From positions 1-64,000 of IMG/VR virus record IMGVR_UViG_3300015615_000196: DNA of 64,000 nt. The stretch is one strand, 5' to 3'. The notes beneath the pieces were generated by a model, which saw nothing but the letters and a program-made list of their open reading frames with translations, had not been told where the DNA came from and searched no databases. Numbering within the stretch: position 1 is the stretch's first letter; every line of letters begins with the position of its first letter. This document shows, piece after piece, positions 40,504 to 54,874 of the stretch. This DNA is from a virus. Lineage: Duplodnaviria > Caudoviricetes. The translations under genes were made by a program, and so were the position numbers.

Positions 40504-41334
40504 ATGAAAGACGATCTTGGCGACCGAATGAAAACCTACTACGAAGACCGTACACGGATTTCATTGCCCCGTAGAACCTTTACCATTATCCGTATTGATG
40601 GTAAGGCATTCCACACCTACACAAAGGGTCTTACCAGACCATTTGATAACGATCTCATTGATGACTTGAATGAGACCACTAAGTTCCTGTGCCAAAGCAT
40701 TCAAGGAGTAAAGATGGGCTATGTTCAGTCAGACGAGATTTCGTTGGTGTTGACGGATTTCGAGAAACATTCAACTGATGCTTGGTTTGATGGCAATCTT
40801 CAAAAAATGGCCTCAATCTCAGCAAGTATGGCAACATCGAAATTCAACCAATTGAGAACGGTGCGTTTCTTGAGAAATACGATGCACACCTTATACTTGG
40901 AGAAGTTCAAGATGGCACATTTCGATAGCCGTGTGTTCACCATTCCATCATTGGAGGAAGTGATCAACTACTTTATTTGGAGACAGCAAGATGCTTCTCG
41001 CAACTCGGTATCGTCTGTTGCTCAGTCTTTGTATTCACACAAAGAATTGAACGGTAAGACTACCAGTGATATGCAAGAATTGATTTTCCAGAAAGGTCAG
41101 AACTGGAACGACTTTCCTGCTGGTCAGAAGCGTGGCCGTACCATTGTGAAGAGAACCGTTGTCGTTCCTACTACGAAGGATATTGTTGAGAAAGCACGAG
41201 ACAAATCAGCTTTCGTATGGGATGATGTGAAGGGTTATGGAATCAACCGTAACCAGTGGGTGATTGAAGAACCACCGATTTTCACAGAAGACAAGGATTA
41301 TATCCGATTGACAGTAATGAAAAAGGAGGCGTAA
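40504..41334 (+). CDS. tRNA(His) guanylyltransferase Thg1-like protein
   Basis: IRIDGKAFH, YVQSDEISL, HFDSRVF, YFIWRQQDASRNS. Confidence 0.95.
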   Translation: MKDDLGDRMKTYYEDRTRISLPRRTFTIIRIDGKAFHTYTKGLTRPFDNDLIDDLNETTKFLCQSIQGVKMGYVQSDEISLVLTDFEKHSTDAWFDGNLQKMASISASMATSKFNQLRTVRFLRNTMHTLYLEKFKMAHFDSRVFTIPSLEEVINYFIWRQQDASRNSVSSVAQSLYSHKELNGKTTSDMQELIFQKGQNWNDFPAGQKRGRTIVKRTVVVPTTKDIVEKARDKSAFVWDDVKGYGINRNQWVIEEPPIFTEDKDYIRLTVMKKEA

Positions 41335-44292: not shown

Positions 44293-44790
44293 TTAAGCGA
44301 GTCTGAACTTAGATAAGAATTCCTTTAGCAGGAAATTTTTTTCTCCACCGATTTGCTGTTTGAATGCTACTTCATCGAAGATGATGTGTATTGCAGGAAC
44401 AACTTCCATTGTACCATACTTAATAGGCTTCAACGCTGCTGCTGCATCGGGATACTTCTCACGATTCCAGATACGTTCATCTGCCAAGAAACAGAATGCA
44501 GTCATGCCGTTGTAGAGATCGGGTTCTTTGAAGAACGCAAGATCAACAATTTGATTATCGACCAAGTAACGGAAATGTTCGTTCAATGAAATTGATGAAC
44601 CACCATTTAGAATAATGATGGTTTTATCGCGTCCAGCCCAAGTCTGGTATTCTTCGGTATGACCGAATGCTCGTGCATGTTCAACAATTGCGTGAGCAGC
44701 TTGAATGCCCTGTTGAATTGGACTGAGGTTGTATAGAACAATGACATACATTCTTTGTTCTAACGGAGTGGCTTCTTTTTGTTCGTCCAT
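44293..44790 (-). CDS. Pth2-like peptidyl-tRNA hydrolase family protein
   Basis: MYVIV...SPIQQGIQAAHA...KTIIIL...FKEPDL...TA. Confidence 0.65.
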   Translation of the reverse strand: MDEQKEATPLEQRMYVIVLYNLSPIQQGIQAAHAIVEHARAFGHTEEYQTWAGRDKTIIILNGGSSISLNEHFRYLVDNQIVDLAFFKEPDLYNGMTAFCFLADERIWNREKYPDAAAALKPIKYGTMEVVPAIHIIFDEVAFKQQIGGEKNFLLKEFLSKFRLA

Positions 44791-44791
44791 T

Positions 44792-45271
44792 TTAAATATG
44801 GATTTCTCTCAAGTTATTCCCGACCATTGCACCAGCAATATCAAAGTCAACATCGAAGTCACCGTGTTCATCCCAAAATCCACCGCCTCTGTATGTTATA
44901 TCTATAATCAGATATTCAGCAGATGGTAGTATTCTGAAAAGATCATCACGAGTGTGCTTGGTGAAGTGATCCAGATAAGGGCGAAGATCGACATTTTTTA
45001 CCATATCTTCAAGTCCCATGTTCGATAATTCTTCGCTCAATAGTTTGTCTACTGTGGCGACATCGAACAGGATCAAAGATTCCTCGCCATCATCAGTAAA
45101 TTGAAGCCAATAATCTGCATTGTGAATTTTACCTTCACTATCAATACAAAATTTTGGCAATACACTGGTTAAATAGCGATCATGGGAAAACTGCTTCCGT
45201 AGTTGCCCGATCTCGTTCCCTGTCATTTGATAGACCTCAAGGGAAAGAAGTGTTCTGTGTTTAGTTCTCAT
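44792..45271 (-). CDS. hypothetical protein
   Basis: Co-directional ORF. Confidence 0.7.
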   Translation of the reverse strand: MRTKHRTLLSLEVYQMTGNEIGQLRKQFSHDRYLTSVLPKFCIDSEGKIHNADYWLQFTDDGEESLILFDVATVDKLLSEELSNMGLEDMVKNVDLRPYLDHFTKHTRDDLFRILPSAEYLIIDITYRGGGFWDEHGDFDVDFDIAGAMVGNNLREIHI

Positions 45272-45274
45272 AGT

Positions 45275-45466
45275 AAATGAAATGAGCGTACCCTGAATTC
45301 TGTTCTATTGTGTCATTTATCTGTTTGCAGCAACCCGATTAATAGGCTTGGTCAACCCTAATCTGTTAGCCTTGCATCTTCGCGGTGATAACGGCTTTCG
45401 CCTCCCGCAAGCCAAATTGATGTTCAAAGTTCCTCTCCGTAGAGCGACACATCCTCTGTTTCATTT
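45275..45466 (-). ncRNA. rnpB: minimal RNase P RNA (catalytic domain, reduced specificity domain)
   Basis: GAGGAA-CUUUGAA / ACAGAA-UUCAGGG-UA (P4), UGUGUC/GACACA (P2) after AGAUAAAU, P3 CUCU-ACGG-AGAG, P5 CAUC/GAUG followed by CAAG, P1 AAAUGAAA..GAG/CUC..UUUCAUUU. Confidence 0.85.
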
Positions 45467-45871
45467 AATGAGTCCCATGAACCAGCATGTGATAACGAAT
45501 AGATGGCCACTGAATATCACAATATAGTTCAAAAGAAGCACCGTTGGTGATATATACGGCTTTCTGTAGAAAAGGTTGCTCACTCCTACAGATACCACAA
45601 TAATCAAAGGTACAACCCATAAATTAGTAAACAAAGTGAGTGCAAACCAAGGAACAAATGCTGATTGCACAAATGTCCGCAACTCCGTATTATCTCTCCG
45701 ATATTCTACAGCAAGTTTCATACGATACAATTGCGGTAGAATTTTCATTTTTGAAATGTACCTTCTCTTCAACTCCAACATGTAGGAGAACTCAAAGTTG
45801 TACATTGCAAACAGTGCGTCTATTGCAAGGAATATACTTAGAAAAAATATTATGTGTGCGAACAGTGTCAT
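45461..45871 (-). CDS. membrane protein, hypothetical
   Basis: Three to four hydrophobic segments. Confidence 0.7.
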   Translation of the reverse strand: MTLFAHIIFFLSIFLAIDALFAMYNFEFSYMLELKRRYISKMKILPQLYRMKLAVEYRRDNTELRTFVQSAFVPWFALTLFTNLWVVPLIIVVSVGVSNLFYRKPYISPTVLLLNYIVIFSGHLFVITCWFMGLIK

Positions 45872-46401
45872 TAACCTACCTTCACCTTGTTGGCTATTTC
45901 TTTGTGGAACGCAGCCAAGAATGCTTCTTTAGCTTCTTTCGGTGACATACAACGCATTGGTGGATATTCTGTGTCTGGCTTTTCAAGCATGACAACTTCC
46001 CACTCCCACTTCAACAGAAGAATATCAACTCTTTCAACTTCCGGTGATTTTGGATAATTGAAGTTGAACTTCTTCGCCAGCACATTCATCAAGTTGTCCT
46101 CGATTGAATTGTACTCTGCCAATTCAAGTTTGATTGGCTTCGGCATATCCAGCAAGTATGCTTCACTTGCATCGTGCATTAAAGCATCGAACTTGTAAGG
46201 CTCTTTTGCAACTTCATAGCATAACAATGAATGCTGTGCTACGGAATAGAATCTTGGGAGGTGTCCACCGAATCGACATTGATTTGACAATGCGTGTGCA
46301 ATGTCCTCAATGAGTAACGTGTCTGGATTAGGCTCAAATACGTTTACGTACTGCCCTGAAATCGTTCTTATAGAACGAACAGCATACAAATTCTCTGTCA
46401 T
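45871..46401 (-). CDS. HD-family 5'-deoxynucleotidase (YfdR/YfbR-like)
   Basis: IEDIAHALSNQCRFGGH...YSVAQHS...LMHDASEAYLLD. Confidence 0.9.
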   Translation of the reverse strand: MTENLYAVRSIRTISGQYVNVFEPNPDTLLIEDIAHALSNQCRFGGHLPRFYSVAQHSLLCYEVAKEPYKFDALMHDASEAYLLDMPKPIKLELAEYNSIEDNLMNVLAKKFNFNYPKSPEVERVDILLLKWEWEVVMLEKPDTEYPPMRCMSPKEAKEAFLAAFHKEIANKVKVG

Positions 46402-53472: not shown

Positions 53473-53817
53473 ATGGAGAAGATTTCTAAAGTCATCAGAT
53501 CACACGCGAATGGATCAATGTTCGAGTACGTGTTCTTTTGTCCGGGATGTGGTTGTGCACACGGGATTCGTACTACAAGTTGGCCGATGCCAACCGGATT
53601 AACAGAAGAGTACATTGAACTCTTCCAGAACAAATGGACTTTTAATGGTGATGTTGAGAAGCCTACTATACACCCTTCCATTCATGTATGGCATAAAGAT
53701 AAGAAAGGCAATAAAACTACAACTTGCCATTCGTTCGTTACGGAAGGTAAAATCCAATACCTCAATGATTGTATCCACGATTTAAAGGGACAGACAATCG
53801 ACTTGCCGGATTTTTGA
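53473..53817 (+). CDS. DUF6527-like Cys/His protein
   Basis: FCPGCGCAH...WTFNGD..KPT..PSI...CHSF...DCIHDLKGQT. Confidence 0.7.
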   Translation: MEKISKVIRSHANGSMFEYVFFCPGCGCAHGIRTTSWPMPTGLTEEYIELFQNKWTFNGDVEKPTIHPSIHVWHKDKKGNKTTTCHSFVTEGKIQYLNDCIHDLKGQTIDLPDF

Positions 53818-53893
53818 GCACAAGGTGGGATTCGAACCCACGACATATGCCTGTTTTGCAGACAGGAGCCTTGAACCACTTGGCGACATGTGC
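53817..53893 (-). tRNA. tRNA-Cys(GCA)
   Basis: Cloverleaf; loop CTGCAAA. Confidence 0.9.
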
Positions 53894-53898
53894 GTGTG

Positions 53899-53980
53899 TA
53901 CCCCCGACAGGATTCGAACCTGTACGCCTTTCGGCACTACGTTCTAAGCGTAGCATGACTACCATTTCCAACACGGGGGC
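53899..53980 (-). tRNA. tRNA-Leu(TAG)
   Basis: Class II cloverleaf; loop CTTAGAA. Confidence 0.93.
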
Positions 53981-54007
53981 ATTTTAATCTCTTTCTAATA
54001 AGTATTT

Positions 54008-54322
54008 ATGGGTATGCAGGGAGTAAACGAAATAACCAACATTTTCAAGGACGACCAAGAATACATTCCGGTCATTGCTGATCACGGAACGGTTGATGAT
54101 GCCATTTTCGGTGCTGCACTTCGTAAGGGTCATCTACCCAAATCCAATGTTACTACCGAATCTTTCAACATTGTCAAGAAGAATATCTACAAGATACACA
54201 AGCATGACGTGCCAAAGTTACTCAAGCTGCTCGAAGGTCTCAACAAAAGGCATCAAAATCAATTTCAGCCTCACATTGACGACATTTCTTACCACTTCAA
54301 CTCAATCAAAAAGAAGAACTAA
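54008..54322 (+). CDS. hypothetical protein
   Basis: Preceded by GTATTTAT motif. Confidence 0.6.
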   Translation: MGMQGVNEITNIFKDDQEYIPVIADHGTVDDAIFGAALRKGHLPKSNVTTESFNIVKKNIYKIHKHDVPKLLKLLEGLNKRHQNQFQPHIDDISYHFNSIKKKN

Positions 54323-54516
54323 TCCTTATCTACATCGTTGAGTACGTACTTCACAAGAAGCACAACTGCGATTGTACTGAAAGGAATAAACAGTATGATC
54401 AAATCGATCAAGAAAAGAACTGGATTAATGAATCCATGATTCTTCAACTTGTAGTAAGTTGTCAACGGGAGGATTATTCTCCACCAGTTGAATTGCTTGA
54501 TCTTATCCATCATATG

Positions 54517-54598
54517 TACCCTTGGAGGGACTCGAACCCCCACGCCTCACGGCACTGGCTTCTTAGACCAGCGTGGCTACCAATTACACCACAAGGGC
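54517..54598 (-). tRNA. tRNA-Leu(AAG)
   Basis: Class II cloverleaf; CTGGT-CTAAGAA-GCCAG. Confidence 0.9.
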
Positions 54599-54627
54599 AT
54601 GTACATTTAAATACTGAGAAGTATTTG

Positions 54628-54698
54628 AGCCTTGACTGAGAATTGAACTCAGATTCTTTGTTTACGAAACAAAAGTTTTGCCGTTAAACTATCAAGGC
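54628..54698 (-). tRNA. tRNA-Thr(CGT)
   Basis: Loop TTCGTAA. Confidence 0.88.
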
Positions 54699-54705
54699 AA
54701 TTTTT

Positions 54706-54780
54706 TGGAGCCTCCAATGAGAATCGAACTCATGTTTCTCCCTTACCAAGGGAATGTTCTACCATTGCAACTATGGAGGC
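54706..54780 (-). tRNA. tRNA-Thr(GGT)
   Basis: Loop TTGGTAA; CCA encoded. Confidence 0.9.
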
Positions 54781-54786
54781 TTATAC

Positions 54787-54872
54787 AAAGTATTGTTCTG
54801 ACATTGAACTACGCCCTTACGTCATGATCGTAATTTGAGGATCGGTGGGACTCCAACCCACAACTATACTTC
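54787..54872 (-). ncRNA. circularly permuted tRNA-like RNA (YrlA/Y RNA-like), copy 1
   Basis: Order: AAGTAT stem - T arm GTGGG-TTGGAGT-CCCAC - closed acceptor hairpin - D arm GTTC-AATGTCA-GAAC - ATACTT. Confidence 0.7.
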
Positions 54873-54874
54873 TG

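Follow-up and report, generated by a model that had tools for sequence, protein, structure and literature searches.

A miniature type A-like RNase P RNA gene in a jumbo phage, with a predicted P4 helix that lacks the bulged uridine

RNase P RNA is commonly seen as a ribozyme of cells, and the bulged U of its P4 helix is described as universal. This U coordinates the catalytic metal M1 (PMC3488217), and change or deletion of U52/U69 carries a 13- to 100-fold cost, the residue being termed 'not irreplaceable' (PMC3488217). The C domain of the E. coli RNA alone cleaves at the correct site ~100-fold more slowly, for which P6 is needed and P18 is not (PMC5839562); the length of P3 is immaterial, and the C5 protein makes the C domain ~190-fold faster (PMC5839562). 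Residues A248/A249 of J5/15 contact N-1 of the substrate (PMC10731613). In archaeal type T RNAs P2 has 3 bp, the P5/P15 linker is 2 nt long and the universal P4 positions are kept (PMC3579882). A literature search that had most subscription papers outside its reach returned neither a report of a phage- or virus-encoded RNase P RNA nor a natural P4 without a bulge, and the accessible part of a 2024 review gives no viral P RNA. What is new here, judging from sequence, is a natural sub-lineage of RNase P RNA with a predicted bulge-less P4.

The window analyzed is a stretch of 64,000 nucleotides and covers bases 1-64000 of a virus record of 362,603 bp, which is complete and has direct terminal repeats. 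The record represents a jumbo phage with a T4-like Gp23 capsid gene and 61 tRNA calls. On the minus strand, positions 45274-45467 hold a gene of 194 nt for a miniature type A-like RNase P RNA, which takes up the space that separates two ORFs of the same orientation, neither assigned to a family. The upstream ORF (45461-45871, minus strand) encodes a hydrophobic protein of 136 residues and is syntenic in the orthologues; its stop codon lies within P1 and is overlapped by the 5' end of the RNA gene. The downstream ORF (44792-45271, minus strand; 159 aa) starts 3 nt past P1. The first-pass annotation had recognized a ~190-nt RNA at 45275-45466, which is close to the true extent given above. The operon also encodes ClpP, a dNMP kinase and an IMPDH/GMP reductase. 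By eye, window positions 44293-44790 resemble a PTH2-like peptidyl-tRNA hydrolase and 45871-46401 an HD-domain nucleotidase, neither of them confirmed by Pfam or NCBIfam. Exact-protein look-ups with the window's own neighbor genes did not find a second assembly.

The host is probably a member of the Bacteroidota, given an excess of promoter motifs, the rarity of Shine-Dalgarno-like motifs and the frequency of A at -3. The motif TTTG-N19/21-TAnnTTTG has 24 matches in the genome, compared to 3-14 in shuffles, and of 250 long ORFs in the genome 14 carry a Shine-Dalgarno-like motif and 120 an A at -3. A predicted promoter of this type, TTTG-N19-TACCTTTG, matches the consensus at 45605-45635 on the minus strand, within the upstream ORF and 138 nt before P1, and is the sole full match on that strand within 43-62.5 kb (19.5 kb). 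A consensus match to the -7 box lies at most ~80 nt upstream of the P2 region in six of eight orthologues. Scans for sigma-70 promoters and terminators gave signals at chance level.

For the structure we use E. coli numbering and helix names, as in the cited reviews; all positions are on the minus strand. The universal core of RNase P RNA is present, with P1-P2-P3-P4 and a P4 pseudoknot that links CR-I to CR-V, and so are the sequence motifs of CR-I, CR-IV and CR-V. P1 consists of a 9-bp outer and a 3-bp inner helix in which the 5' strand (45454-45467) pairs with 45274-45286; in nine orthologues 96% of its cells are paired, with double changes at 4 pairs. P2 is a 6-bp helix between 45446-45451 and 45309-45314 that is 100% paired, and P3 (45435-45444) is a 3-bp hairpin with a UACG loop. 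CR-I (45423-45435) comprises GAGGAA at 45435-45430 followed by the 8-nt 5' strand of P4 at 45430-45423, and CR-V (45290-45303) comprises ACAGAA at 45303-45298 followed by the P4 3' strand at 45297-45290. The 5' strand of P5 (45419-45422) pairs with 45375-45378 and is 99.5% paired in the family. The 5' strand of the P6 pseudoknot (45412-45416) pairs with 45347-45351 in L17. In J5/15, CAA (45372-45374), the equivalent of A248/A249, is invariant in the nine orthologues. The P15/L15/P16/P17 arm (45329-45371) presents L15 GGU at 45335-45333, the 3'-RCC-binding motif, and CR-IV, AGAUAAAUG, occupies 45314-45322.

What is missing is most of the S domain. The CR-II/CR-III T-loops are absent, and the 29 nt between P6 and the 3' strand of P5 hold a stub (45381-45409) made of P7 (45409-45405/45385-45381) and a P9-like GAAA hairpin (45402-45393), where we infer the names P7 and P9 from position. 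P8, P12-P14 and P18 of bacterial type A are also absent; for P18 this follows from the mere 6 nt between CR-IV and P15, as the first-pass annotation had noted. The landmarks that it listed are all present on the minus strand in the order claimed. Its S domain of a 4-bp GCGG/CCGC helix and a GAAA hairpin was right in the hairpin and a pair short in the helix, since P7 has 5 bp. Not in its account were the P6 pseudoknot, P16/P17 and the length of the P4 5' strand, 8 nt rather than 9. With P6 and P16/P17 found, the whole type A catalytic domain apart from P18 is present.

By sequence comparison, 45467-45274 is confirmed as a genuine RNase P RNA gene. An HMM built from 48 homologues, window copy excluded, matches it with 83 bits (E 2.6e-24) and reaches 13 bits at best on the reversed genome; the HMM search of the genome gives the window copy only, which dismisses a second copy. 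A covariance model built from 43 other members, again excluding the window copy, scores 100 bits (E 1.4e-19). Single-sequence folding of the 194-nt RNA is unremarkable (z -1.1), as expected for a pseudoknotted RNA. Rfam has no match at this locus at gathering thresholds, nor do genome searches with RF00010, RF00373 and RF02357, the last without a match in the phage genome. The RNA stays below the RF00010 gathering score (100 bits), and a local E-value scan alone found it, as a match to the archaeal RNase P model RF00373 of 24.1 bits (E 4e-5) that lies under the gathering score of 84. In blastn against cultured phages the window copy gave chance matches only. A phage-encoded minimal RNase P RNA without an elbow-reading S domain, as first proposed, is thus backed by homologues, covariation and synteny, and the search of other large phages gave >80 homologues with strong covariation that includes P4.

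The family was collected with spaced-motif scans of viral and metagenome contigs, which are biased to intact motifs, and comprises at least 92 loci and at least 76 distinct cores, window copy included. In 49 aligned members 86.6-89.5% of cells are paired, compared to 67-69% after shuffling and at most 46% in slid controls, and the covariation score is 0.55 against 0.18 for shuffled alignments; pairing and double changes in these members count sequences, not events. P4 is 99.5% paired with double changes at 6/8 pairs and P6 88.6% with double changes at 5/5, and pairing is 95.5% in P7, 93.9% in P15 and 92.9% in P16. Among the matches listed, a tRNA lies no more than 1 kb away at 57 of 91 homologue loci. 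A search of 185,579 prokaryote genomes gave the phage-like form on no more than three contigs, short ones from MAGs that are probably misbinned phage DNA.

Within the clade of the window phage, the RNA was detected in at least 7 of 13 complete relatives. A 321-kb relative (L740:2509-2513) has the syntenic operon without a gap and without the RNA, a clean loss, and this absence together with the patchy distribution among clade relatives makes the gene dispensable. The closest relative, G001, gave a match of 17 nt inside a protein gene, which was rejected as chance. Several members of the family depart from the common form. At L614:1470-2348, in a clade relative of 364.7 kb (G004), the gene is split at P19 by ~670 nt that encode a GIY-YIG/NUMOD3 endonuclease of 207 aa; complementary ends of the insert loop the ORF out, and CR-V and P4 resume after it, as expected if the RNA fold must survive. 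A 488-kb phage carries a degenerate second copy without GAGGAA (L428:1888-2026, minus strand) ~300 nt downstream of an intact one. L615/G011 has an insert of ~110 nt in the P9-like loop, and three clade relatives (L611 and L612 among them) have a CR-V variant with A for G. L707 (LR756502.1), from a 642-kb metagenomic phage, is an unannotated member that another family member matched in blastn.

The 5' strand of P4 in the window RNA is one base short. All of its 8 nt pair with the 3' strand; C70 is missing, and the shortening places the U69 equivalent (45427) within a continuous 8-bp helix, where it forms a U-G wobble. The U that is universally bulged is thus present, and paired. In 83 of 83 distinct homologues the strand is 9 nt long; its fourth base (U in 82, A in 1) stays unpaired and precedes C70. 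One member, L366:967-1215, has A rather than U at the bulged position. P4 had also been described in the first-pass annotation as 're-paired' relative to the E. coli sequence, with G-U pairs. The C-G/U-G pairing is a common trait of the subfamily, not a peculiarity of this RNA: among the matches listed, the P4 5' strand starts ACUUC in 35/75 distinct homologues.

Energies and orthologues both point to the continuous register. The continuous helix is at -7.3 kcal/mol compared to -1.9 to +1.6 for bulged alternatives; we rejected registers that restore a bulge, as they carry a penalty of 5-9 kcal/mol, with 6/8 pairs only in four orthologues. Opening the fourth and weakest pair costs 3.0-3.8 kcal/mol by nearest-neighbor energies. 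A scan for copies lacking C70 led to another bulge-less RNA, carried by a phage of 371.5 kb whose capsid is 82% identical; in 55 hand-aligned pairs between this RNA and the window RNA, 9 double changes and 2 single changes retain pairing and 0 pairs are broken. Synteny look-ups through a neighboring protein gave seven further bulge-less orthologues, and the nine copies come from independent assemblies of JGI and Logan samples. The P4 strand has 8 nt in 9/9 of these syntenic orthologues, and 72/72 P4 cells are paired in the continuous register, compared to 5/8 per sequence in the canonical one. In three orthologues the second pair is G-C instead of C-G, and this change establishes the bulge-less register. 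One orthologue (L733) has a Watson-Crick U-A at the U69 position, which weakens the idea that a U-G wobble is an obligatory replacement for the bulge. C70 is retained by a syntenic orthologue from a relative whose capsid is 79% identical, and the bulge is kept in the syntenic relative G002.

Over the whole structure the nine orthologues are 97.5% paired, with double changes at 12 pairs where shuffles lead one to expect 5.2. Identity to the window copy is 77-92% at the nucleotide level for the RNA and 24-75% at the amino acid level for the flanking proteins. GAGGAA, CAA, GGU and the final UAC are invariant in 9/9, and the invariance of the CR-I and CR-V backbone, J5/15 and L15 GGU indicates that the metal pocket and the grips on the substrate are retained. 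As the nine orthologues share a register and the RNA is better conserved than the flanking proteins, the deletion is real and inherited, and purifying selection has continued after it; a single origin is likely. The alteration of P4 is not confined to this sub-lineage. In a separate clade (L198:8622-8781, L708, L713, L715, L719) the 5' strand has 9 nt, the bulged U is shifted three pairs towards P5 and 8/8 pairs form, so that phages have remodeled the geometry of P4 on at least two occasions. The L198 copy sits within an array of 38 tRNAs.

The phage RNA resembles bacterial type A (E. coli M1 RNA, rnpB; RF00010) in the order and pairing of P1-P5, the P6 pseudoknot, the 6-bp P2, the P15-P17 arm with L15 GGU, J5/15 and CR-I, CR-IV and CR-V. 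It differs in having half the length, in lacking P8, P10-P14, CR-II/III, P18 and the bulged U of P4, in being carried by a virus without a detected RnpA gene and in escaping a genome search with RF00010. Like archaeal type T (RF02357), it has naturally shed most of the S domain, keeps a stub of P7 and a P9-like hairpin, lacks P18 and goes undetected by standard models. Type T works with archaeal proteins. The phage RNA differs from it in its 6-bp P2, its 3-nt linker and the loss of the bulge, and we infer that the likeness is probably convergent. Two archaeal MAGs, one of them of Micrarchaeota, also contain archaeal RNase P RNAs of ~190-200 nt outside the Thermoproteaceae (L503, L512), with a reduced S domain and a perfect P4. 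The engineered Eco CP RPR delP18 P3Mini (PMC5839562) likewise has no S domain, no P18, a short P3 and a retained P6, and in the parts kept and lost the phage RNA, as predicted, matches the engineered E. coli C domain; unlike the phage RNA, the construct keeps U69 and lacks the P7/P9-like stub. Relative to other phage miniature RNase P RNAs, the nine-member sub-lineage differs in its continuous P4, in the shifted sequence of P6 and in having a shorter P16/P17.

Candidate substrates are close at hand. An array of 28 tRNA calls lies at 53816-61542 on the minus strand, 8.3 kb upstream of the RNA and on the same strand; the RNase P RNA gene itself sits outside it, in a protein operon. The proposal that the RNA is suited to odd phage tRNAs was not borne out, and with it goes this rationale for the loss of the S domain: 56/61 tRNA calls have a normal elbow, with both the D-loop GG and the TTCRA T-loop, and the leaders are classic. 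U occupies -1 in 41/61 leaders and A-2U-1 is found in 32/61 (p 1.6e-14), which is the known preference of RNA-based RNase P (PMC10731613). Such leaders suit host RNase P equally well. CCA is encoded in ~6/61 tRNA calls, and a CCA-adding-type domain occurs in a 992-aa frame at genome position 230396. A Thg1 tRNA-His guanylyltransferase, which belongs to the phage's equipment for tRNA maturation, is encoded at 40504-41334 on the plus strand (PF04446, E 1.4e-28). As G at -1 is already encoded in both tRNA-His genes, Thg1 may, speculatively, serve to repair 5' ends. RnpA (PF00825) was found neither in this phage nor in five relatives, and no HARP gene was found in this phage genome. At window positions 54875-54947 (minus strand) Rfam calls a tRNA with a CUA anticodon (amber suppressor), overlapping a differing ARAGORN Ser call at 54837-54924, and genome position 299220 has another CUA tRNA.

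We favor, with moderate confidence, the reading that the RNA is a slow, host-RnpA-dependent and acceptor-end-guided RNase P of bacterial type A descent that has lost its P4 bulge. It would be transcribed from the host-type promoter or excised from the operon mRNA, a route proposed because P1 closes the RNA off exactly between two ORFs, and would fold through P4 and P6 and bind the RnpA protein of the host. Pre-tRNA would be gripped at the acceptor end only, by L15 GGU on 3'-RCC, by the A of J5/15 on U-1 and by RnpA on the leader, and the 5' leader would be cut with Mg2+ held by the CR-I/CR-V backbone. The O4 ligand of U69 would either be dispensed with or become available when the weakest P4 pair opens transiently. 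Such an enzyme would be slower than that of the host and would supplement it while ~60 phage tRNAs mature. In favor of this reading are the covariation and the invariant surfaces of the RNA, the closeness of many homologues to tRNAs, the presence of Thg1 and a CCA-adding-type domain, and tRNA leaders that suit RNase P. The loss of the S domain (~100-fold) compounded by that of the bulge (13- to 100-fold) could leave very low activity, and that the bulge normally matters is indicated by the ~83 other family members that keep it. Against a supplement, the host already owns an RNase P, the gene is dispensable and the window copy lies outside the tRNA array.

We rank this slow RNase P above three other readings. 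An ordinary family member carrying a single-base assembly error, or a decaying pseudogene, was suspected at first because the 83 homologues are all bulged; the gene is patchy within the clade, and another phage has a degenerate second copy (L428). That reading is now highly improbable, since nine independent assemblies share the deletion, with compensatory changes in P4 and elsewhere, and comparison with relatives over 136.6 kb of the genome gave no credible frameshift. The one candidate, near 161,860, was rejected as a natural gene split found in 12/12 complete genomes, that of the window phage included. At genome positions 161,855-161,875 two overlapping genes, which we take to be probably baseplate gp26/gp51-like, meet at a slippery-looking site and are fused in G001; a -1 frameshift there is possible. 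An active nuclease retuned to hairpins or other non-tRNA substrates (phage non-coding RNAs, tRNA-like RNAs or mRNA leaders), which would recognize an acceptor-like stem with RCCA without an elbow, is doubtful. The RNA retains no T-loop reader, C-domain constructs cleave model hairpins at +1 (PMC5839562), CCA is encoded in few of the phage tRNAs and the window copy is off the tRNA arrays; in the part of the 2024 review that was available, U69 contacts the acceptor stem, and its loss could relax the geometry. However, among the matches listed most family members do lie in tRNA arrays, phage tRNAs are mostly canonical, and the proposed targets are candidate substrates only.

More serious, if still unlikely, is a non-cleaving or nearly dead P RNA that sequesters host RnpA or CCA-ended pre-tRNAs as a decoy or dominant negative. 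The loss of the bulge would then be a disarming change by which host tRNA maturation is dampened or redirected, and by sequence this loss does raise the odds of a decoy somewhat. In 9/9 orthologues a helix buries the only catalytic ligand that comes from a base, the continuous helix is favored by 5-9 kcal/mol over bulged registers, the surface that faces RnpA (P2/P4/CR-IV/CR-V) is intact, and a phage RnpA was not found in six genomes. Inhibiting RNase P nevertheless looks costly to a phage whose ~60 tRNAs need 5' processing. The metal ligands of the CR-I and CR-V backbone remain invariant, and U69 has never become C in the nine sequences available, although a C-G pair would be more stable. Mutants without this U remain active (PMC3488217), and a sponge purely for the protein is at odds with the invariance of the substrate-binding elements J5/15 CAA and L15 GGU.

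For the slow RNase P that we favor and for its rivals alike, the nine bulge-less RNAs beside the bulged one of G002 form a natural comparison for the role of the bulge. If the RNA is active, the bulge would be dispensable in a minimal holoenzyme and the catalytic model would have to be revised; if it is inactive, evolution would have disarmed a ribozyme and made a new non-catalytic RNA. At 194 nt it also offers a compact scaffold for structure work. Standard Rfam annotation overlooks the RNase P RNAs of phages, and these copies imply that large phages supply their own RNA for tRNA 5' processing or interfere with that of the host.
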